64,000 nucleotides of DNA from Patescibacteria group bacterium (lineage in GTDB: Bacteria > Omnitrophota > Gorgyraeia > Gygaellales > Profunditerraquicolaceae), in contig DATJPV010000025.1 of NCBI GenBank assembly GCA_035506195.1, positions 22,494 to 86,493 of the forward strand, read 5' to 3'. Of the stretch, positions 3,991 through 13,402 are shown one piece after another. Position 1 is the stretch's first letter. Every line of letters starts with the position of its first letter. The notes beneath the pieces are model-generated. The model saw only the letters and a list, made by a program, of their open reading frames with translations, did not search any database and was not told the origin of the DNA. The position numbers and the translations under genes were made by a program.

Positions 3991-5115
3991 TTAGAACGTT
4001 ACGTAGCGTTCGGCTTTCTCAAGCAGGCGGACCTGCTTTCCCAGGACATCGAGAGACCGGATCTTTGTCCCGTTCAGGCGGAATGCGAGTATCCGTTCAA
4101 CCATTACCTGGCCTAGACCGGGAACGCGCAGCAGGCGCCAGGCGTCATCTTTATTGATGTCCACCGGAAAAAAGTCGGGATGCAATAATGCCCAGAGCTC
4201 TTTCGGGTCAGTGGCGATAGAGAGGTTCCCCTGAGGGTCAAGAGGGATCTCCTCGGCTTTAAAACCGTATTTGCGAATGAGCCAATCCGCCTGATACAGC
4301 CGGTGCTCGCGCGTCAAAAGCTCGCCGTTAGTCAGCCGCGAGCGTTCTCCGGGCAACTGGGGGGAACCTGCGCCGCGCTGGTAGGCGCTGAAATATACGC
4401 GGTTCAAGCCCAGCTCTTTATACAGTTTCCAGGAACAATCGATGATCTCTTTGTCCGTCTCTTGGGCGGCGCCGACCACGAACTGCGTAGTGTGCTTAAT
4501 CCCGCGGTAATCGGAACCTTTTGCGGTAAGGCGGCTGATCAGTTGTATCGGCCTTAGGATATCGCGAAGATAGTTTTTGGTGGTGCTCAGATACTTGAAG
4601 TTTTTTTCTCCGGCAGTTTCGATGTTCAGGGACACCGCGCTTGCCAAGGCAAGGCTCTGCCGGATGGCGGCATCGGATGCGCCGGGAATGATCTTCAAAT
4701 GGATGTAGCCTCTGAAGTGTGCCCTGCGTAAGCCAAGCGCCACGCGGTTAATGCGCTCCATGGTGTCATCGGGATTACGCATGACGGCGCTGCTTAAGAA
4801 AAGGCCGCTTACTCTGCGGGCTTTATAATAGGCAAGGAAAACCTTGGCCAGTTCCTCCGGCGTAAGCGTACAGCGGCTGGCAGCGAAACCGGTCCTGAGC
4901 GGACAGTATGCGCAGTTATTGACGCACTCGTTGGACAAAAGCGTCTTAAAAAGGAACGTGGTGCCGCCGTTAGGCAGGACGACAGGGTATATCCATTTGT
5001 CTTGCGGGGAGCGCCGGCGGTGCTCATCGTCTCTTGTGGCGCAGGCGCAGGCAAGGTCATACCGAGAATCCTGCGACAGGATAGCAAGCTTTGCGGCGAT
5101 ATCGGGATTTTTCAC
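3991..5115 (-). CDS. radical SAM protein, putative DNA modification/repair family with C-terminal helix-hairpin-helix
   Basis: CxxxCxxC cluster motif (CVNNCAYC) in the N-terminal half. The C-terminal segment LLRVPGLGQVMVERILAFR is a typical HhH GLG motif. The overall layout matches the family that is usually paired with a family-4 uracil-DNA-glycosylase-like gene, which is absent here. Confidence 0.65.
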   Translation of the reverse strand: MKNPDIAAKLAILSQDSRYDLACACATRDDEHRRRSPQDKWIYPVVLPNGGTTFLFKTLLSNECVNNCAYCPLRTGFAASRCTLTPEELAKVFLAYYKARRVSGLFLSSAVMRNPDDTMERINRVALGLRRAHFRGYIHLKIIPGASDAAIRQSLALASAVSLNIETAGEKNFKYLSTTKNYLRDILRPIQLISRLTAKGSDYRGIKHTTQFVVGAAQETDKEIIDCSWKLYKELGLNRVYFSAYQRGAGSPQLPGERSRLTNGELLTREHRLYQADWLIRKYGFKAEEIPLDPQGNLSIATDPKELWALLHPDFFPVDINKDDAWRLLRVPGLGQVMVERILAFRLNGTKIRSLDVLGKQVRLLEKAERYVTF

Positions 5116-5116
5116 G

Positions 5117-6958
5117 CTAGAATTCTGCCTTCAGCCCTCCGGTAAAAGAGAAGCCCGGCATGGGGTAATCCTGAATGACATTATACTTCTTCGCCAAAAG
5201 GTTGTCTACTGCCGCAAAATACGTAATCCCGGATTTACATTTTTTTGACACATTGAAGCCAACCGTATAGAACCTTTTTACTTCGATGGTATTGGCGGCG
5301 TCGTGGAATCTGGTGCCCGTGAATTGCCCTTTAAGCTCACAGGCAAGGCCGCGCGGGTCTCTGTATTTCAAGGAACAGTCGGCCTTATGCCTGGGCTGAT
5401 AAATAAGATACTTATGCGTATCCGCATCTTTTGCGTTCAGGTAGGTATAGCCCGTATCCAGGCTCCATCTGTCCGCGATTTTTATCTTGTTCTCAAGCTC
5501 TATCCCGTCTATCACCGCGGAGTTGACGTTCATCGGCTGCCACACCCCGGCCTCTTCTGCCCAATTGATAAGATTGTCGTAATCGCTGCGGTAATACGTC
5601 AATCCGAAACCGAAGCGCTTGTGCGGGGCGACCTGAACGCCTATCTCTTTGGTTACGCCTTTCTCGGGCTTTAAGAGGGGGTTTCCTTTGGCCCAGCCTT
5701 CATCCGGCCAGTAAAGGTCGTTGAAAGTGGGCGCGCGGAAAGAACGGCTGATAGAACCGCGCAGCTTCAGGGCGTCGCCGGCGGAATACAGAAAATTAAA
5801 AGAGGGGTTGATCTCGGCGCCGAGGTTCGAATAATCATCGAGCCTGGCGCCAAAATTCAACTTAAGCGAGCCGAACAGGTCGATCTTATTCTCCAGGTAA
5901 CCCGCACGGACGGTATAGTGGTGCTTCGCCGATGAGGTGCTGTCGTTGAAATTGCCGACATAGTTGAACCCGCATATCCCCTGGTAGCTTTCCGAAAACC
6001 GCCTGCTGAACTGCGCGTCATAGCCCCGCACGACAGTGATATGGACGTCTTTTTTGCCGGCAACGTCAAAGATAGACCCCGCGGTATTCTCGTCGAATTC
6101 CAGGCGATCGTAATTCTGGTATGCCTTGATCGAGGCGGCCGTGGCGTCATCGGGCCTGAAACCCCAGCTTGCGTCGATAAACTTTTTTGTGTTCTTCTGC
6201 GTATCGTCGAAATCCGGAGAAACAATGCTGCCGGGAGAACCCAGCCTGCTGCGGTAAAACCCGGAATTTAAAGTTATGTCGTTGGAGTCGTTGAATTTAT
6301 AGGTAAGCTTGGTATTGGCATCCTTGGCTTCGAGCTTCGTATTCGCACGGAAACCGGCGGAACTTTGATAGCCGCTGGTGACCAGATAACCGAATCCGGA
6401 TACCCTGGCGCCGTGCGAGAGCCGTTCGGTGTACGTCCGGAAGGTGCCGAAACTGGAGTAGAGCTCGGTTTTCTGTTTTTCCCCGGGCGGATTCCTCGTA
6501 ATGATATTCACCGTCCCGCCCATAGGGCCTGACCCGTAGAGGCTTGAGCCGGGCCCGTGCACGATCTCGACCCTCTCGATATTGTCTAACGGGATGGCGC
6601 TCAGATCCGCCTGGCCGTCGCGGGGGCTATTGATCGGCCTGCCGTCCACTAAAACCAGCACCTGGCTGGAAGTTGAGCCGCGCATCCTGACCGTTTTGGA
6701 CGCGCCCAGGCCGCCGTAATCGCTTACGTTGACGGAGGTAAAATCGGTCAAGAGCCCGGAGAGGTCCTGTGCCTGGCTCCTTTCAATGTCTCTTCTGGTG
6801 ACCACGTCGACATTCCGGGCGACGCCGGAGCTGTCTTCTTCCACGCGGGAAGCGGTAATGACAATCCGGTCCAATTCAACGTCCTGCGCAGAGACGCTCG
6901 ACCAGACGGCCAACGCCAATGCTGCCGGAAGGAATAGTTTTCCGATAGGTGCCTTCAT
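5117..6958 (-). CDS. btuB: TonB-dependent outer-membrane receptor, BtuB-like corrinoid importer
   Basis: ORF 5117..7096. The real start is probably Met at 6958 (signal peptide MKAPIGKLFLPAALALAVWSSVSAQD). TonB box DRIVITAS, a plug domain, a long beta-barrel and a terminal aromatic residue (F). It is the last gene of the riboswitch-led B12 operon. Its ATG overlaps the stop of the upstream gene (ATGA). Confidence 0.8.
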   Translation of the reverse strand: MKAPIGKLFLPAALALAVWSSVSAQDVELDRIVITASRVEEDSSGVARNVDVVTRRDIERSQAQDLSGLLTDFTSVNVSDYGGLGASKTVRMRGSTSSQVLVLVDGRPINSPRDGQADLSAIPLDNIERVEIVHGPGSSLYGSGPMGGTVNIITRNPPGEKQKTELYSSFGTFRTYTERLSHGARVSGFGYLVTSGYQSSAGFRANTKLEAKDANTKLTYKFNDSNDITLNSGFYRSRLGSPGSIVSPDFDDTQKNTKKFIDASWGFRPDDATAASIKAYQNYDRLEFDENTAGSIFDVAGKKDVHITVVRGYDAQFSRRFSESYQGICGFNYVGNFNDSTSSAKHHYTVRAGYLENKIDLFGSLKLNFGARLDDYSNLGAEINPSFNFLYSAGDALKLRGSISRSFRAPTFNDLYWPDEGWAKGNPLLKPEKGVTKEIGVQVAPHKRFGFGLTYYRSDYDNLINWAEEAGVWQPMNVNSAVIDGIELENKIKIADRWSLDTGYTYLNAKDADTHKYLIYQPRHKADCSLKYRDPRGLACELKGQFTGTRFHDAANTIEVKRFYTVGFNVSKKCKSGITYFAAVDNLLAKKYNVIQDYPMPGFSFTGGLKAEF

Positions 6959-7629
6959 GCGTACCTTTTGATATCCAAAAACCAGTGCTTCCAGAAACTT
7001 TCCTTGATGACGGCCTCGGCCTCGATTATTTCGATCGGCTTCCTGAATATCGGGCCGTCGACCACCAGGGTATGAAACTCCCCTTTCTCTCCGCACGGGC
7101 AGATGCCCCTTTGCTTAAGTTCTCTGACCAGGTCCCTGTCTACGGTCCGGCCGAGGAACTCTTTGCCCATGATGTCTGCCTTGCAACTGACGATAACCGC
7201 CTTGAACCCAAGGCTGACGAATTCATCAATGATCTTCTCCGGAAGGTTATTCCAGAGCGGCTCCAGGGCATGGATCTTAAGGTCCCCGCAGACGCGCTCG
7301 ATCCAGCTTTCGTGTTCCGCAAGATAGATGTCCCCAAAGACCATCGTACCGATACCCCTGCCCCTGAACTCGGTGACCGCAGCTTTGAACTCCTCTTCGT
7401 ATTTCTCCATATCGGAGCTGACTTCCTTTTGCACCAACGGTATGCCGATCAGGTCCGCCTGGAATTTCAGGAGCCTGCCTTCAAGGCCGTGAAAACATCC
7501 TCGCCTCGATTCCCGGGAAATGAAATTCAGAAGGTATTTTACGTCATACCCCTGCTGCCTTGCCTTATAACAAGCCAGGCAGCTGTCCTTACCGCCGCTC
7601 CAGGAAGATATTGCCGCCGAATTATCCAT
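6955..7629 (-). CDS. DUF71/COG2102 PP-loop ATP pyrophosphatase (diphthine-ammonia-ligase-like), B12-operon-embedded
   Basis: N-terminal PP-loop SWSGGKDS. The whole 224-aa protein matches the MJ0570/Dph6 N-domain (adenine nucleotide alpha-hydrolase). It is flanked by cobS and btuB with overlapping codons. Confidence 0.7.
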   Translation of the reverse strand: MDNSAAISSWSGGKDSCLACYKARQQGYDVKYLLNFISRESRRGCFHGLEGRLLKFQADLIGIPLVQKEVSSDMEKYEEEFKAAVTEFRGRGIGTMVFGDIYLAEHESWIERVCGDLKIHALEPLWNNLPEKIIDEFVSLGFKAVIVSCKADIMGKEFLGRTVDRDLVRELKQRGICPCGEKGEFHTLVVDGPIFRKPIEIIEAEAVIKESFWKHWFLDIKRYA

Positions 7630-7641
7630 CGTTGTCCTTTT

Positions 7642-8394
7642 TTAGCCGAGGCAGACCATACAGAGAGCCAGGGTTTCCGTTAATTCAATGACCGCCCCCA
7701 GGGTATCTCCGGTTATCCCGCCGATCCTGTTGGCGATAAACCTGCCGCTTGCACAGGTAAAGCCGGCGATGACCGTAAAGGCAAGCAAGCCTTTTAAGCC
7801 CCAGGCGGCAACCGAGAATATGAGCGCTGTGAAAGAAGCAAACAGGACGATCCCCGGTTCCATGCCCTCCATAAAAACTTTGGCTTTGCCCTCTTGACGG
7901 GCGTAGGGAAACAAAAACATCGCCAAAACCGCAGACCAGCGGCTTAAGACGCAGGAAAGAAGCAGGCCGGTCGTCCTTGCGGGCGCAAGACCCAGGCCGA
8001 CAAGCAAGCTCACCTTCAATAGCATCAGGCTTATCAGGCTTACGACGCCCATTACGCCGACGTGAGGATCCCGCATGATCTTAAGCATTTCCTCTTTTGG
8101 CCTCGCGCTCAAAAAGGCGTCGGCAGTATCCGCAAGGCCGTCTAAGTGCATCCCCCCGGTGATACCGACCCAAGCAACTACCAGAATGACGCCGGATGCC
8201 AGCGCAGGGAAATTCAACATCCCAAGCAGCGCCCCTATCCCGGCCAAGGCCAGGCCCAGCAACAACCCCACGAAAGGAAAGTATGCCGCAGCGCCCGCCA
8301 GATGCTTTTCGTCCGCCTCTTTCATGCCAAGCGGCACAATGGTCAAGAACTGCAGGCTCAATAAGAAGCTACTCATTTTTCTTCTCCGAAACAT
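7642..8394 (-). CDS. cobS: adenosylcobinamide-GDP ribazoletransferase (cobalamin-5'-phosphate synthase)
   Basis: 250-aa polytopic membrane protein with conserved CobS blocks (FLTIVPLG, GGMHLDGLADTADA, GGITGDTLGA). The start could be M at 8394 or MSSFLL at 8376. Confidence 0.85.
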   Translation of the reverse strand: MFRRRKMSSFLLSLQFLTIVPLGMKEADEKHLAGAAAYFPFVGLLLGLALAGIGALLGMLNFPALASGVILVVAWVGITGGMHLDGLADTADAFLSARPKEEMLKIMRDPHVGVMGVVSLISLMLLKVSLLVGLGLAPARTTGLLLSCVLSRWSAVLAMFLFPYARQEGKAKVFMEGMEPGIVLFASFTALIFSVAAWGLKGLLAFTVIAGFTCASGRFIANRIGGITGDTLGAVIELTETLALCMVCLG

Positions 8395-9430
8395 TGGCGC
8401 TTTGAAAGGTTGCCATCTGCGTCAGGATCTTAACCGCCGCATCGGCCAGCCCCATTGCCAATGCCGCGCCCGTGCCTTCGCCAAGCCTCAACTGCAGGTT
8501 CAAGAGGGGTTTCAATCCGATGTGCGCCAAAATATGCGCATGGCCTCCTTCGACCGACTCATGCGCGGCGATCATGTAATTTTTTACTTTCGGCTCGATC
8601 CGGTATGCCGTCAATGCCGCAGCCGAAGAGATGAACCCGTCAACGACTACGGGGACTTTTCTTGCGGCGGCAGCCAGGATGATACCGGCCAGGCCCGCGA
8701 TCTCGAATCCGCCTACTTTTGACAAGACATCAATCGGGTCAGAGGCATCGGGCCTGTTCACCAGAAGCGCCTTTTTAAGCACTTCAATCTTGCGCGCCAG
8801 CCCCTTATCATCGAGGCCGGCGCCCCGGCCGGTGATGTCTTCAAGGGGCCTTCCGGTAAAGCAGGCGGTAATGGCGCTGGCGGAGGTCGTATTGCCTATG
8901 CCCATCTCGCCCGTGCCGATAATATCTGCGCCGCGGCGCAATTCCCGCTCGAATACCTCGCAGCCGGCACAGACCGCGCTGACTGCCTCCTGCCTGGTCA
9001 TAGCCGGTCCCGCAGCCATATTTTTGGTGCCGTAGGCGATCTTCTTGACGGTAAGCCGAGGGTCGGGCTTGAGGTCACAGGCAACACCCATATCGACTAT
9101 CGCAACCCGGGCGCCTACATGCTGCGCCAGGACGTTTATACCGGCGCCTCCCGCAAGAAAATTGTAAACCATCTGGGCGGTTACTTCCTGAGGATAGGCG
9201 CTTACCCCTTCCGCGGTTACTCCGTGGTCGGCGGCCAGCGTAAAGATCACTTTATTGCCCAGGGCAGGGCTTTCTTTCCCGGTGATCCCGCAGACCTGCG
9301 CGGCAAGCTCCTCAAGCCTGCCCAAGCTTCCTAAAGGCTTGGTCAGGTTATCCAGCCTCCTGCGGGTCTTTTTGATAAGCTCGGTATCGAGTTCGGAAAT
9401 CTCCTGCGTCACTTTTTTTATTCTTTCCAT
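8369..9430 (-). CDS. cobT: nicotinate-nucleotide--dimethylbenzimidazole phosphoribosyltransferase
   Basis: 353 aa with the CobT signature (GEMGIGNTTSASAI, LGEGTGAALA). Confidence 0.9.
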   Translation of the reverse strand: MERIKKVTQEISELDTELIKKTRRRLDNLTKPLGSLGRLEELAAQVCGITGKESPALGNKVIFTLAADHGVTAEGVSAYPQEVTAQMVYNFLAGGAGINVLAQHVGARVAIVDMGVACDLKPDPRLTVKKIAYGTKNMAAGPAMTRQEAVSAVCAGCEVFERELRRGADIIGTGEMGIGNTTSASAITACFTGRPLEDITGRGAGLDDKGLARKIEVLKKALLVNRPDASDPIDVLSKVGGFEIAGLAGIILAAAARKVPVVVDGFISSAAALTAYRIEPKVKNYMIAAHESVEGGHAHILAHIGLKPLLNLQLRLGEGTGAALAMGLADAAVKILTQMATFQSANVSEKKNE

Positions 9431-9954
9431 CGTGCCCCCGGTTTAATTTCGACCGGTATACCGGAAACGGTAACACATACACGGTCTGCTTCTTTTGCTG
9501 CCAACTGGTTCACCTTACCGGCGATATCGCGAAAATCCCTGCCCAGCCTGTTGGCCGGCACCAGCCCCAGGCCCACCTCGTTAGAAACCAGGATCGCCGT
9601 AGCTTTCTTTTTTCTAAGCTGCGCAAACGCATCCTCGATCTCTTTAAGGATCGATCGTTCCTTACGCCCGGCCAGAATAAGATTCGAAACCAGCAGCGTC
9701 AGGCAGTCGACAACGATACAATCGAAGCCGCTGCCTATCTTGCCCAATACGCCCGCAAGGTCTCTTGGCTCCTCAAGAGTCTCCCAGTGCCGGGGCCTGG
9801 CCTGGCGGTGCGCGCGGATGCGCTCCCGCATCTCCTTATCCAGGCCCTGGCAGGTTGCGACAAAAACTACTTTTTTATGCTTTTTTGCCAACTGCAATGC
9901 GTAGGCGCTCTTTCCGCTGCGGGCGCCCCCCAAGATCAAAACTATCTTATTCAT
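9418..9954 (-). CDS. cobU: bifunctional adenosylcobinamide kinase / adenosylcobinamide-phosphate guanylyltransferase
   Basis: 178 aa with a P-loop (GGARSGKS) at the N-terminus and CobU/CobP-family length and order (VFVATCQ...DCLT). Confidence 0.85.
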   Translation of the reverse strand: MNKIVLILGGARSGKSAYALQLAKKHKKVVFVATCQGLDKEMRERIRAHRQARPRHWETLEEPRDLAGVLGKIGSGFDCIVVDCLTLLVSNLILAGRKERSILKEIEDAFAQLRKKKATAILVSNEVGLGLVPANRLGRDFRDIAGKVNQLAAKEADRVCVTVSGIPVEIKPGARWKE

Positions 9955-10553
9955 GGCTGCTCCAGGTGGGCTATGTCGTTAAACTTCTTTATCCGAGGCG
10001 CGGCCTTTCTGTATTCGACTACCGTAACGCTGGTTGCCTGGGGCACATAACGCCAGAAGTCTCTCGTTTTCAATACACTGCTGACGAATATGCCGATGGC
10101 TCCCCCGTGGCAGACTACGGCTACGGTCTTGCCGGGGTTGCTGGAGGCGATCTTGCGTATGGTGCGGCATATCCTTTTCTTGAACGCCCGCATCGGCTCC
10201 GCCTTAGGGATACGATTCTTATAGGGGTCCTTGATCCAGCTTTCATAAAGCCGGCCGTAGGTAGCCGCGATCTCTTCGTGGCGCAGGCCTTCAAGCACCC
10301 CAAAATTTATTTCCCGCAACCCGGCGACCTTGGTGAATCGCGCCCTGCCAAAAATGATACGGCAGGTCTGCACGGCGCGCCTTTTGCTGCTGCAGTATAT
10401 CTTGTCGAAAGAAACCTTCTCCAGTTTCCTGCGCAGCTTCGCCGCCTGCTGCCTGCCTTCGCGGCTTAAGCCCACGTCGAGACGGCCGCAATAGCGCCTT
10501 TGCTTATTCCAGGCGGTTATGCCGTGCCTGATCAAGAAGATCTGCGTGGTCAT
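9951..10553 (-). CDS. cobC: alpha-ribazole-5'-phosphate phosphatase (histidine phosphatase superfamily)
   Basis: RHG motif at the N-terminus (LIRHGITAWN) and a second catalytic His (VCHGGAI). It sits between cobU and btuD. Confidence 0.7.
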   Translation of the reverse strand: MTTQIFLIRHGITAWNKQRRYCGRLDVGLSREGRQQAAKLRRKLEKVSFDKIYCSSKRRAVQTCRIIFGRARFTKVAGLREINFGVLEGLRHEEIAATYGRLYESWIKDPYKNRIPKAEPMRAFKKRICRTIRKIASSNPGKTVAVVCHGGAIGIFVSSVLKTRDFWRYVPQATSVTVVEYRKAAPRIKKFNDIAHLEQP

Positions 10554-11341
10554 GATCCTCCTGCCGGCACCAGCACGACGTTCGGCCTTTTAGTGAGCTG
10601 GTTCGTATTCACCAGCACTATGGTTTTATACACTGCCTCGATGTTCTGATACGTAAGGACCTCCTCAGGGCTGCCCTCTTTGAAGATCGCCCCTTTGTCC
10701 AGCAACGCAATGCGGTTACAGTAAGCGCTGGCCAGGTTCAGATCGTGGAGGATCATGACAATGGTAAGGCTGTTCTTACGGTTAAGCCTTTTCAGCAGGT
10801 CCAACACCTGTATCTGGTGGCCGATATCAAGGTGTGAGGTCGGTTCGTCCAGGAATAGAAGCGCCGGCTCCTGGGCCAGGGCCCGGGCGATGATCACCCG
10901 CTGCCGCTCCCCTGCGCTTAACTCATCGATACGCTTATCTCTTAGGGCAAGCGTATCGGTCAGGGAAAGCGCCTGTTCCGCAATCTCGATATCTCGCTTC
11001 GTCTCAAACTGCATGCGTTTCAAATGGGGAATCCTGCCCATTAGCACGATCTCGATGACCGTGAAGGAAAAACTGCTTAAGATATCCTGCCCCACAAAAG
11101 CCACCCGGCGGCAAAACTCCTTTACTTCCATACGGAAAATATCCCGATCCCCCAAAAGCACCCTCCCCCTGGCAGGCACAAGCACCCGGGTGGCAAAACG
11201 CAGGAGCGTAGTCTTACCCGAACCGTTCGGGCCGATGATGCCCATGCAATCACCCTGATGTATATCAAGGCTGATACCCTTGATCACCTCTTCCTGATAA
11301 TAGCCGCCGGATAGGTTTTTTATTTGTAAAAGCGGTCCCAT
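10550..11341 (-). CDS. btuD: ABC transporter ATP-binding protein, BtuD/FecE-type
   Basis: Walker A GPNGSGKTT, ABC signature LSAGERQR, Walker B LLFLDEP, H-loop. Confidence 0.8.
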   Translation of the reverse strand: MGPLLQIKNLSGGYYQEEVIKGISLDIHQGDCMGIIGPNGSGKTTLLRFATRVLVPARGRVLLGDRDIFRMEVKEFCRRVAFVGQDILSSFSFTVIEIVLMGRIPHLKRMQFETKRDIEIAEQALSLTDTLALRDKRIDELSAGERQRVIIARALAQEPALLFLDEPTSHLDIGHQIQVLDLLKRLNRKNSLTIVMILHDLNLASAYCNRIALLDKGAIFKEGSPEEVLTYQNIEAVYKTIVLVNTNQLTKRPNVVLVPAGGS

Positions 11342-12300
11342 CAGAACCTCCTGCCCTTCTTTAAGATGATCATGAATGCGGGAGCCCCTATTATTGCCGT
11401 AATGACGCCGATGGGTATCTCCATCGGCGCAAAGAGCGTCCGGGAAAGCAGGTCACAGGCGACCATGAATACCGCGGCAGCCAGGCAGGTAGCGGGGATA
11501 AGCGTCTTATGGTTGGGGCCGCAGACCAGGCGCATCATATGGGGTACGATCAGGCCCACGAAACCGATGATCCCGCAGATACAGATGAGGCTGGCAGTGA
11601 TCAAAGCGGTAACAAGAATGAGTATCTTTTTTATGTTCTGCGCATCTATGCCTACGTGCATGGCTTCTTCTTCCCCCATGCTGATGGCATTCAAATCCTG
11701 CGAAAATATATATACCGTGCAGATCCCCAGGATAACCGGTATGGCTACCAACACGACCAGCTTATAATCATACACCTGCATGCTTCCCCATAACCACCAA
11801 TTCATCTCGTGCATGGCAAGGTTGCCGAAAAGGGAAACCAGGAATACGATGATCGAAGAGAATGCCACCGAGACGATCACGCCGGAAAGTATCAGCGAGG
11901 TATCAAGGATCTTGCCTCTGTCCCGGGCCAGGTTATAGACCAGAATGATGCTGGCCAATGCCCCCAGGAATGCGGCCAGCGGCATATAGATGCGCGAAAC
12001 CCCTAAGATAACGGCGATGACCGCAGCCAGGCCCGCGCCGCTTGAGGTACCCAGCAGGTACGGCTCAGCCAAGGGGTTGCGCAGGATCGCCTGCAGGGCT
12101 ATGCCCGAAACCGCCAGGCCGCTGCCGGCGAGGATCGCGACCAACACCCTTAAAAGCCTCAAGTGGAAGATGGCCTGGTTTTTTTCAAGTAAAAGCTCAG
12201 CCGGCGGAATGCGTACTGCGCCCTTCACCAGCGCGTAGATCGCTACGGCGCACAACAGCAAAAATAATACCGGCAATCTTTTGCGTAAAGGCTCGTTCAT
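11341..12300 (-). CDS. btuC: FecCD-family ABC permease, BtuC-like
   Basis: 319 aa, ~9 TM helices, FecCD-type permease blocks (LLGTSSGAGLAAV, GIIGFVGLIVPHMMR). Confidence 0.8.
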   Translation of the reverse strand: MNEPLRKRLPVLFLLLCAVAIYALVKGAVRIPPAELLLEKNQAIFHLRLLRVLVAILAGSGLAVSGIALQAILRNPLAEPYLLGTSSGAGLAAVIAVILGVSRIYMPLAAFLGALASIILVYNLARDRGKILDTSLILSGVIVSVAFSSIIVFLVSLFGNLAMHEMNWWLWGSMQVYDYKLVVLVAIPVILGICTVYIFSQDLNAISMGEEEAMHVGIDAQNIKKILILVTALITASLICICGIIGFVGLIVPHMMRLVCGPNHKTLIPATCLAAAVFMVACDLLSRTLFAPMEIPIGVITAIIGAPAFMIILKKGRRF

Positions 12301-13127
12301 TGTCCGGGGTAGAGTTTTTTATACAATTCTTTTAAGCCTTCGGTTATCCTGGGCCCGGGCCTGAGCAAAAGATCCGGGTCGATATCGTTAAATACCCGTT
12401 TATTTTTCACCGCTTCGATGCCCGCCCAGCCAAAACGGCCCTCGACCAGCCTCAGGGGCGGCTCTTTATCCATGTAGGCCAGGATGATGACCTGAGGATT
12501 CAAACTGACCACCTTCTCAGCGCTGAAAATCGAATAGGGCCTGTTTACTTGATGCCCCACGTTGATCCCGCCGGCCAGGGTGATCATCTCATCAATAAAG
12601 GAGCCTCGCCCGGCAGTCATGAGCGGCTCATGCCAGATCTCGACAAAGATCCTTGTTCTTCTGTCTTGCGGAATGAGCTTCACCTTTGCACTGACTGCCC
12701 TGATGTCATCGCGCATCCTGGCGATCAGGGCTTGAGCCTCTTTTTCCCTGGCGGTGATCTTTCCGATGTCCCGAATGGAAGAAAACAGTTCCTCGATGTT
12801 CGCAGGGTCGGCGATGTAGACATTCAACTTGAGGCGCTTTAGCTCGGCAATCGTCCCTGCCTGCTCAAGGCCGGTGCAAAAAACGTAATCGGGCCTGGCG
12901 GCAACGATCTGCTCCATGTTGGGGTGGCTGAAATCTCCGACGCGGGGCTTATGCGCGGCCTCGGCAGGATAGTTACAGTATGCGCTCACTCCCGCAACGG
13001 ATTCGCCTAACCCCAGGGCAAAAAGGATCTCCGTGGTCGAAGGCGCAAGGGAAATGTAGCTGGGTGCAGCCACGGCATTGCCGCAGATCAAAGAAAAAAA
13101 GACGAAAAGTAAAATTGTCTTGTTCAT
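12297..13127 (-). CDS. btuF: periplasmic corrinoid/siderophore-type substrate-binding protein, BtuF-like
   Basis: Signal peptide followed by a class-III SBP fold. It is the first gene after the cobalamin riboswitch. Confidence 0.75.
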   Translation of the reverse strand: MNKTILLFVFFSLICGNAVAAPSYISLAPSTTEILFALGLGESVAGVSAYCNYPAEAAHKPRVGDFSHPNMEQIVAARPDYVFCTGLEQAGTIAELKRLKLNVYIADPANIEELFSSIRDIGKITAREKEAQALIARMRDDIRAVSAKVKLIPQDRRTRIFVEIWHEPLMTAGRGSFIDEMITLAGGINVGHQVNRPYSIFSAEKVVSLNPQVIILAYMDKEPPLRLVEGRFGWAGIEAVKNKRVFNDIDPDLLLRPGPRITEGLKELYKKLYPGQ

Positions 13128-13136
13128 ATAAACACG

Positions 13137-13165
13137 AAACCCGCCACGAGATTCTGGCGGGTTGC
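13137..13165 (-). terminator. riboswitch expression-platform hairpin (attenuator) immediately upstream of the btuF ATG
   Basis: Minus strand: AACCCGCCAGAATCTCGTGGCGGGTT (10-bp stem) followed by TCGTGTTTAT and then ATG. This placement is typical of a riboswitch terminator or RBS-sequestering helix. Confidence 0.5.
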
Positions 13166-13169
13166 ACCC

Positions 13170-13372
13170 AAATAGTTACTTGGCCCTGTCCACGAGGCGT
13201 TGCTTTAATATAGGCAGGTCTTCTGGCTCGGGTATCATTCTAGTTGCTGCGTCTTCCCATCCCGGGTTCTTGAGGGACAGTGACTATTGCAGCTTTCGTC
13301 CACCCTTACAGCGGCGGGACCGCACTCGCTTTCACGAGTTTCCCTTGTCCTATATTACCGTATTGTCGCTTC
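13170..13372 (-). promoter_or_regulatory. cobalamin (AdoCbl) riboswitch aptamer
   Basis: The minus-strand sequence contains the hallmark core GGACAAGGGAAACTCGTGAAAGCGAGTGCGGTCCCGCCGCTGTAAGGGTGGACGAAAGC. This is the AAGGGAA / GTGAAA element plus the B12 box GTCCCGCCGCTGTA. It sits 5' of a btu/cob operon. Confidence 0.85.
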
Positions 13373-13373
13373 T

Positions 13374-13402
13374 AATCTATCAGCCGCAGGCTCGTTTGTC
13401 AA
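13374..13402 (-). promoter_or_regulatory. sigma70-type promoter of the B12 operon (TTGACA-N17-TAGATT)
   Basis: Minus strand: TTGACAaacgagcctgcggctgaTAGATT, immediately 5' of the riboswitch. Confidence 0.45.

Follow-up and report, generated by a model that had tools for sequence, protein, structure and literature searches.

Comparative genomics has divided the DUF71 family of PP-loop ATP pyrophosphatases into Dph6, which carries a strict EGGE/DxE188 motif, and DUF71-B12, which carries ENGE[FY]H188, clusters with B12 transport genes and cbiB, and was predicted to act in B12 salvage (de Crecy-Lagard et al. 2012, Biol Direct 7:32; PMC3541065). The role proposed for the subgroup in 2012 was that of a bacterial replacement for CbiZ, i.e. 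a pseudo-B12 amidohydrolase, or another part in pseudo-B12 salvage (PMC3541065). According to PMC3541065 and references cited in PMC8305020, the sole activity demonstrated for the family is that of Dph6, which converts a carboxylate, NH3 and ATP to an amide, AMP and pyrophosphate (PPi). Here we analyse a DUF71 gene (positions 6955..7629, minus strand) on a 64-kb stretch of bacterial DNA from contig DATJPV010000025.1, hereafter the window. The gene lies in a riboswitch-controlled B12 operon, and its product is very probably a DUF71-B12 member acting in corrinoid salvage and not a Dph6. An original prediction made from the DNA sequence had pointed to comparative genomics tying a bacterial DUF71 subfamily to B12 salvage, possibly by an ATP-dependent amidation or ligation step; the paper exists (PMC3541065), but what it proposed was CbiZ replacement or another part in pseudo-B12 salvage.

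The DUF71 open reading frame (ORF) starts with ATG and encodes 224 amino acids (aa), whose sole Pfam match is PF01902 (residues 7-223, E 9.1e-59, 199.1 bits against a gathering score of 23.2). The reading frame is thus the one originally described, with its SGGKDS PP-loop at residues 11-16. A 244-aa GTG-initiated ORF antisense to it (6949..7683, plus strand) was rejected as a shadow ORF without support. An AlphaFold2 model of the protein (predicted local distance difference test 97, predicted template modelling score 0.93) was compared with known structures by Foldseek, giving template modelling scores of 0.82-0.87 to 2D13 and 3RK1 over ~226 columns. All fold matches were PP-loop proteins, and the model shows the two-domain fold of Dph6, in line with the diphthine-ammonia ligase layout originally described. 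Neither sequence nor fold belongs to CbiZ (PF01955).

This fold is one of the points in favour of the NCBI name, which would make the protein a true diphthine-ammonia ligase (Dph6, EC 6.3.1.14). Characterized Dph6 proteins (yeast YLR143W; PF0828, PDB 3RK1; PH1257, PDB 2D13) have the same two-domain fold at ~29% identity and hold the ATP-binding residues SGGKD, H47/48 and T187/189 in common with the window protein. The top NCBIfam match is the archaeal Dph6 model, and the source databases use the name diphthine--ammonia ligase. An identical protein, from a metagenome-assembled genome (MAG) labelled "Patescibacteria group", is present in public databases; one or more relatives are instead named "Dph6-related ATP pyrophosphatase". 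Against this name, the residues that were assigned to elongation factor 2 (EF-2) binding in Dph6 differ in the window protein (PMC3541065). The score against the archaeal Dph6 equivalog model TIGR03679, although the best in NCBIfam, is 152.5 bits and falls short of the 197.3-bit cut-off. In a HMMER alignment the window motif GEKGEFHT places His186 opposite the catalytic Glu188 of PF0828 and PH1257. Finally, the gene sits in a B12 operon under B12 riboswitch control, and its host is a bacterium, which would offer no EF-2 substrate; bacteria are not known to make diphthamide (see also PMC3541065) or to have EF-2. We consider a Dph6 function effectively refuted and give it next to no chance.

The histidine recurs among the nearest homologues. 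We searched 1.84 billion cluster representatives exhaustively and took the best 150 (50%-identity representatives, 132-288 bits), of which 124 contained the motif, always as GExGE[FY]H[TS]; in the remaining 26 sequences, a good many of which are partial, it was not matched. The Pyrococcus Dph6 structures scored ~89 bits in the same search. Residues specific to the His type were defined against 119 full-length His-type representatives, and the window protein has all eight: W10, Y77, F98, D100, W109, L125, H186 and G192, where Dph6 has Y, E78, A96, A98, R107, A123, E188 and M194, respectively. The shared ATP-site residues S11, G12, G13, K14, D15, H47 and T187 are kept. Among 45 His-type homologues G12, G13, K14, H47 and H186 were invariant, and S11, D15, E181, G183, E184 and T187 were at least 90% conserved. 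The window protein thus combines the fold and ATP site of Dph6 with an apparently re-tooled substrate site.

A neighbour-joining tree grouped the window protein with sequences from Omnitrophota (three), Planctomycetales, Atribacteria and Lentisphaerales (one each); apart from the Atribacteria locus, all members of this clade are linked to B12 genes and a riboswitch. The Pyrococcus Dph6 pair, which with no eukaryotic sequence formed the only outgroup, lay outside this clade on a long branch. The protein hence does not group with true diphthine-ammonia ligases; had it done so, the original prediction would have been undone. It resembles described DUF71-B12 members such as P. furiosus PF0295 and C. 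perfringens YP_695745 in the His-for-Glu188 exchange within GExGE[FY]H, in the conserved PP-loop, in lying clustered with btuFCD and further genes of B12 salvage, and in the mostly bacterial hosts. It differs from the 2012 set in three respects: its motif has Lys instead of Asn at the second position (which varies among homologues), Omnitrophota hosts were absent from that set, and its immediate neighbours are cobS and btuB, not cbiB.

The named relatives that share 78-86% identity with the DUF71 protein all come from Omnitrophota, to whose contigs the operon is also syntenic. Judged from these sequences, the NCBI label "Patescibacteria group bacterium" on the source MAG may be wrong.

The gene is the eighth of an operon that reads btuF-btuC-btuD-cobC-cobU-cobT-cobS-DUF71-btuB behind a cobalamin riboswitch, in keeping with the original description of the locus as a clear instance of the B12 association. 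The features of the region are listed below in the direction of transcription; the labels BtuF, BtuC, BtuD and BtuB are family-level.

13374..13402, minus strand: sigma-70-like promoter candidate immediately ahead of the riboswitch, TTGACA-17-TAGATT whose -10 is preceded by TG, a pattern match only from a consensus scan.
13196..13368, minus strand: cobalamin riboswitch aptamer RF00174, full-length (Rfam cmscan 91.1 bits against a gathering score of 31.5, E 2.8e-21).
13138..13163, minus strand: terminator-like hairpin and T-run between aptamer and btuF, 9-pair stem with 6 GC pairs, tail TCGTGTTTAT.
12297..13127, minus strand: btuF-like periplasmic corrinoid-binding protein (PF01497, E 2.3e-32; top NCBIfam match BtuF, below cut-off).
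11341..12300, minus strand: btuC-like ATP-binding cassette (ABC) permease (PF01032 FecCD, E 8e-85; BtuC models 222 bits).
10550..11341, minus strand: btuD-like ABC ATPase (PF00005; top NCBIfam match a corrinoid ABC ATPase model).
9951..10553, minus strand: cobC-like alpha-ribazole phosphatase (PF00300, E 4.7e-53; TIGR03162 137.6 bits, just under the cut-off of 162.9).
9418..9954, minus strand: cobU, adenosylcobinamide kinase/guanylyltransferase (PF02283, E 4.8e-59; NF004469 194 bits, above the cut-off of 161).
8369..9430, minus strand: cobT, nicotinate-nucleotide:dimethylbenzimidazole phosphoribosyltransferase (TIGR03160 464.8 bits, above the cut-off of 319.3).
7642..8394, minus strand: cobS, cobamide synthase (PF02654, E 2.8e-54; TIGR00317 136 bits, above the cut-off of 110).
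6955..7629, minus strand: DUF71-B12-type PP-loop ATP pyrophosphatase (PF01902; SGGKDS at residues 11-16, GEKGEFHT at residues 180-187, His186).
5117..6958, minus strand: btuB-like TonB-dependent receptor of 613 aa (Plug and beta-barrel domains; TIGR01779 top match, below cut-off).
3991..5115, minus strand: radical S-adenosylmethionine (SAM) and helix-hairpin-helix protein (TIGR03916-like, "DNA modification/repair radical SAM", 281 bits, below the cut-off of 343.5).

The riboswitch is the single Rfam match across the window and was also picked up at 130 bits by a custom covariance model, R1 (see below); the hairpin that follows it is probably the expression platform. The operon genes are packed tightly and most junctions overlap (btuF/btuC by 4 nucleotides (nt), btuC/btuD by 1 nt, btuD/cobC by 4 nt, cobC/cobU by 4 nt and cobU/cobT by 13 nt). 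The junction on which the original prediction had dwelt can be read directly as gcATGAagg, in which the DUF71 stop TGA (6957..6955) overlaps the btuB start ATG (6958..6956). Since start/stop overlaps occur at most junctions of the operon, this ATGA overlap is ordinary operon packing. The prediction had placed the gene between cobS and btuB with overlapping codons; DUF71 overlaps btuB alone and is separated from cobS by a 12-nt gap. Nor is the overlap with btuB conserved in the closest relatives, where DUF71 and btuB are 148 (L001), 163 (L004), 223 (L005), 358 (L088) and 172 nt (L089) apart (L numbers denote the contigs and loci compared); it reappears in L008 and L024, two Omnitrophota loci that are less closely related.

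The btuB-like receptor has a plausible signal peptide (MKAPIGKLFLPAALALAVWSSVSAQD), and its top NCBIfam match, the B12 receptor family TIGR01779, scores 236.6 bits, far under the 599.7-bit cut-off; its tentative assignment as a B12 receptor comes from the riboswitch operon context. The radical SAM gene begins 1 nt past the btuB stop and may be co-transcribed with the B12-regulated operon, but no B12 role is evident for it. It is found in the identical contig L002 and not in the related contigs L001, L088 and L089.

We then asked how far the B12 linkage extends. The full order btuFCD-cobC-cobU-cobT-cobS-DUF71-btuB was found on four independent Omnitrophota contigs (L001, L004, L088, L089) and in part on a fifth (L005), in many cases preceded closely by cobA and followed by tonB. 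A single scan of species-representative genomes then yielded 80 loci that encode His-type relatives (37-82% identical); they belong to Omnitrophota, Planctomycetales, Lentisphaerales, Chloroflexota, Nitrospirota, Desulfobacterota, Acidobacteriota, Bacteroidota, Bacillota and several archaeal groups. Genes were labelled with profiles for which the proteins of the window served as seeds, and neighbours within six ORFs were clustered. A B12-specific gene no more than six ORFs away, or a riboswitch, accompanied DUF71 in 36 of 76 His-type loci, each from a different species. The recurrent neighbour clusters were BtuD, BtuF/BtuB, CobS, BtuC, CobU, CobT, CobC and CobA, followed, by Pfam, by CbiB, CbiP/CobQ, a CobD-type protein of aminotransferase fold, archaeal CobY and CobT, CbiQ, and TonB/ExbB; every cluster present in at least five loci was a B12 gene. 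Pfam scans of the neighbours at ±1 and ±2 likewise had B12 families alone at the top, and the fraction of B12-labelled ORFs fell from 27.5% at ±1 to 0% at ten or more ORFs away.

Riboswitches gave a concordant picture. Of 14 loci scanned with Rfam, 8 had cobalamin riboswitches, and R1, a crude model built from the riboswitches found by Rfam (10 seed sequences, 20 base pairs), gave 27 matches, 26 of them in 20 loci and one in the window, all on the DUF71 strand; the weak matches in L010, L016 and L040 are tentative. With the operon on five Omnitrophota contigs and the 36 survey loci spread over several phyla, the B12 linkage named in the original prediction is conserved.

The survey nevertheless has its limits. 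The scan pattern included the His motif, so that linkage was tested inside the His type only, and ORF calling was heuristic, with spurious ORFs diluting the counts. About half of the surveyed His-type loci, for example in Chitinophagaceae, Algoriphagus and several methanogens, had no B12 context, and the His type may therefore not be monofunctional. The same loci are what would be expected if the protein acted on a non-corrinoid salvage substrate (a lower-ligand base, for instance, or a by-product nucleotide) or were an unrelated gene merely travelling with B12 genes; fusions to GNAT and DUF4116 elsewhere in the family point the same way. What speaks against such a role is that corrinoid transport genes dominate the neighbours while lower-ligand genes are often missing, that riboswitch control and same-strand embedding recur across many phyla, and that B12 genes become less enriched the further an ORF lies from DUF71. 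We give this explanation only a slim chance.

Some arrangements in individual loci are recorded here for their own sake. In L008 two His-type DUF71 paralogues (L008:7663-8388 and L008:10251-10943), 37.5% identical and both with SGGKDS, flank btuB, a pair that hints at two substrate specificities or a heteromer. An apparent tandem DUF71 in L032 was rejected, as it is a single frameshifted gene. A cobalamin riboswitch lies between DUF71 and btuB in a Nitrospirota locus (L021:3738-3912) and, as a weak match, in an unclassified bacterial one (L040:10456-10530), so that btuB would there be separately controlled and DUF71 be last in the upstream unit. A radical SAM/SPASM gene in L008 (L008:6339-7697) is CbpB (TIGR04163 "rSAM_cobopep", 514 bits, above cut-off), and CbpB-type genes stand between cobS and DUF71, or near DUF71, in four B12 loci (L008, L033, L047, L055). 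Downstream of the Omnitrophota B12 uptake cluster in L047 there is a cyclic di-GMP-I riboswitch (L047:9507-9594, 65.6 bits).

Among the surveyed loci, eight paired DUF71 with a corrinoid transporter and had no Cob genes nearby (L016, L021, L024, L059, L061, L065, L077 and L080). The arrangement is riboswitch-btuFCD-btuB-DUF71 in Pyrinomonadaceae (L061, L077) and riboswitch-btuB-DUF71 in Ohtaekwangia (L065); DUF71 and btuB are adjacent in either order, depending on the phylum. The recurrence of transporter and DUF71 modules puts the enzyme at the pathway's uptake end, where imported corrinoid enters the cell.

In four Desulfobacterota loci (L059, L084, L086, L087) the module contains a further gene. 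The operon btuB-asnB'-DUF71-btuFCD, controlled by a riboswitch (133-139 bits), encodes an AsnB-type synthetase domain of ~305 aa with the PP-loop SGGIDS, no glutaminase domain and a CxxC...CxxC tail, and asnB' overlaps codons of both the flanking btuB and DUF71. In a Nitrososphaerales archaeon (L036) a homologue immediately follows DUF71, and in a Dehalococcoidales genome (L037) another closes the B12 salvage cluster. The asnB' genes are located as follows.

L059:7997-8929: asnB', Desulfobacterota.
L084:7001-7918: asnB', Desulfobacterota.
L086:7001-7921: asnB', Desulfobacterota.
L087:7001-7921: asnB', Desulfobacterota.
L036:727-1685: asnB' homologue, Nitrososphaerales.
L037:13166-14095, minus strand: asnB' homologue, Dehalococcoidales.

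The pairing of an AsnB-type synthetase with DUF71 in B12 uptake operons is a new observation of this work; a literature search for it found none. To our knowledge, the known members of both the DUF71/Dph6 and the AsnB-type families make amides from adenylated carboxylates and perform no hydrolysis. The pairing is thus a clue in support of ATP-dependent re-amidation of corrinoids. In L086 and L087 a second cobalamin riboswitch (L086:13000-13189, minus strand; L087:13015-13203, minus strand) controls a divergent exbB-exbD-tonB operon beside btuB-asnB'-DUF71-btuFCD.

We propose, tentatively and at a little less than even chances, that DUF71-B12 catalyses an ATP-dependent, ammonia-using and AMP-forming re-amidation of a corrinoid carboxylate. 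The enzyme would be cytoplasmic and produced only under B12 scarcity, from one riboswitch-controlled transcript that also encodes the proteins that import corrinoids (BtuB, BtuFCD) and assemble the nucleotide loop (CobU, CobT, CobS, CobC). Its substrate would be a freshly imported corrinoid, and no diphthamide would be made. ATP would be bound by the SGGKDS loop, and a corrinoid carboxylate, either a deamidated side chain or part of an incomplete corrinoid, would be adenylated with release of PPi. Free ammonia would then displace AMP and restore the carboxamide; ammonia is the expected nitrogen donor because the DUF71 protein lacks a glutaminase domain. In this way the downstream Cob enzymes could come to use corrinoids that are damaged or only partly amidated, and in some lineages DUF71-B12 would cooperate with the stand-alone AsnB-type synthetase. 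His186 and the aromatic-rich subgroup-specific residues would form a new substrate pocket, in which the histidine that replaces the catalytic Glu of Dph6 might accommodate, or even ligate, the corrinoid.

Family, signature, fold, operon, riboswitch and conserved context are direct observations here; we infer the substrate and the direction of the chemistry. The conserved ATP-binding and adenylation residues argue for adenylation chemistry and not plain hydrolysis, as a simple hydrolase would not need them. Ammonia attack on an adenylated carboxylate, the step proposed for DUF71-B12, is also that of the PP-loop amide synthetases NadE, QueC and the AsnB C-terminal domain; these are distinct families, and similarity is confined to the N-terminal nucleotide-binding domain (Foldseek E at least 1e-2). 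If re-amidation holds, its net reaction, ATP-driven conversion of a corrinoid carboxylate to a carboxamide, would be that of CbiP/CobQ and CbiA/CobB. The latter are MinD-type, glutaminase-fused enzymes that form ADP and phosphate, whereas DUF71-B12 is a PP-loop protein without a glutaminase domain and would give AMP and PPi.

Besides the survey limits and the His-type loci without B12 context, four points count against re-amidation. The window has no AsnB-type partner. CbiP/CobQ, the de novo side-chain amidase, adjoins DUF71 in five loci, where a re-amidating enzyme would be partly redundant. Our literature search found no biochemical assignment of DUF71-B12 after 2012 (subscription-only papers lay outside it), in agreement with the original statement that no biochemical function is established, and turned up no work later than the 2012 paper; a paper on corrinoid starvation in Dehalobacter does not mention the DUF71 family. 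Finally, DUF71-B12 is strictly anti-correlated with CbiZ in bacteria and co-occurs with CbiB, which favours a CbiZ-like role (PMC3541065).

According to that alternative, DUF71-B12 would strip the nucleotide loop from pseudo-B12, another unsuitable cobamide or cobinamide to give adenosylcobyric acid, from which CbiB and then CobU, CobT and CobS would rebuild a cobamide with the preferred lower ligand; the chemistry might use ATP-dependent O-adenylation of the f-side-chain amide. CbiZ itself (adenosylcobinamide/pseudo-B12 amidohydrolase, PF01955) has the equivalent salvage and remodelling role that was proposed for DUF71-B12, and CbiB-containing bacteria carry either one or the other (PMC3541065). 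Our data agree in part: CbiZ was not among the recurrent neighbour clusters of the 76 loci, cobT and cobS beside the window DUF71 suit an exchange of lower ligands, and cbiB lies next to DUF71, or not far from it, in L023, L031, L033 and L037. CbiZ is, however, an ATP-independent hydrolase of unrelated fold and family, whereas the DUF71 protein keeps a complete ATP pyrophosphatase site, which is strictly conserved. A reviewer of the proposal pointed out that no PP-loop ATP pyrophosphatase is known to work as an amidohydrolase, and no hydrolase-specific change was seen by the authors (PMC3541065). The product would also need CbiB and aminopropanol phosphate. A tblastn search for cbiB, cbiP, cobD, cobY and cobA across the window found none, and cbiB and cobD were likewise absent within 10 kb of DUF71 on the five related Omnitrophota contigs; with none of cbiB, cobD and cbiP within reach, a CbiZ-like reaction fits these loci poorly. 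The transporter and DUF71 modules and the AsnB-type partner also suit cleavage poorly. We regard a CbiZ replacement as unlikely.

Another possibility is that DUF71-B12 is an amide ligase that joins a different amine (aminopropanol, aminopropanol phosphate or ethanolamine phosphate) to a corrinoid carboxylate, as a soluble alternative or helper to CbiB or as the maker of a loop variant. This would use the same adenylation chemistry as re-amidation, and the window operon does cover all nucleotide-loop steps but the CbiB-type one. However, cbiB and a cobD-type decarboxylase gene share the DUF71 operon in several loci (L023, L031, L033, L037), and DUF71 is thus no CbiB substitute in those genomes. 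Genome-wide, too, DUF71-B12 co-occurs with CbiB (PMC3541065), and tblastn found no genes for aminopropanol-phosphate supply in the window. We hold this ligase to be quite improbable, and retain re-amidation with ammonia as the working proposal.

Two further leads on function were followed among neighbours and fusions. An AP_endonuc_2 gene (xylose-isomerase-like TIM barrel; L001:13759-14673, L089:12737-13660) that lies a few genes downstream of the operon in two Omnitrophota contigs was considered as a candidate resembling CbiR, a cobamide-remodelling enzyme of the same superfamily; the candidate was dropped as probably unrelated, as rpsU intervenes and the gene is absent from the window. In one homologue (P0238) DUF71 is fused to a C-terminal PF04071 "cysteine-rich small domain", which may also occur in a precorrin methyltransferase; the fusion is suggestive only. 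Other fusions, GNAT-DUF71 (P0191), DUF4116 repeats-DUF71 (P0129, P0199) and tandem DUF71 (P0126), are uninformative on function.

As the B12 association has been in the literature for 14 years, the locus is another instance of it and not a discovery. It is a new member, in a new phylum, Omnitrophota, of a known subgroup that is biochemically uncharacterised; it brings no new principle but widens the association to Omnitrophota. The original suggestion that it would make a good model holds for heterologous enzymology, for which it is adequate, and less for genetics, for which an uncultured Omnitrophota MAG is a weak choice. What the survey adds is a narrowing of the options, through the kept ATP site, the transporter and DUF71 modules and the pairing with a second amide synthetase.

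Many microbes, unable to make their own B12, rely on scavenging it, and the corrinoid forms that they can use shape microbial communities. DUF71-B12 is among the few widespread riboswitch-regulated B12 genes without an assigned reaction, and its bacterial members are routinely mis-named "diphthine-ammonia ligase", so that an assigned activity would fix thousands of annotations. It would also add a step to the salvage map, be it repair by re-amidation, remodelling or ligation. If true, re-amidation would give B12 salvage a step of repair or completion that had gone unrecognised, one that acts right after uptake and restores lost side-chain amides.

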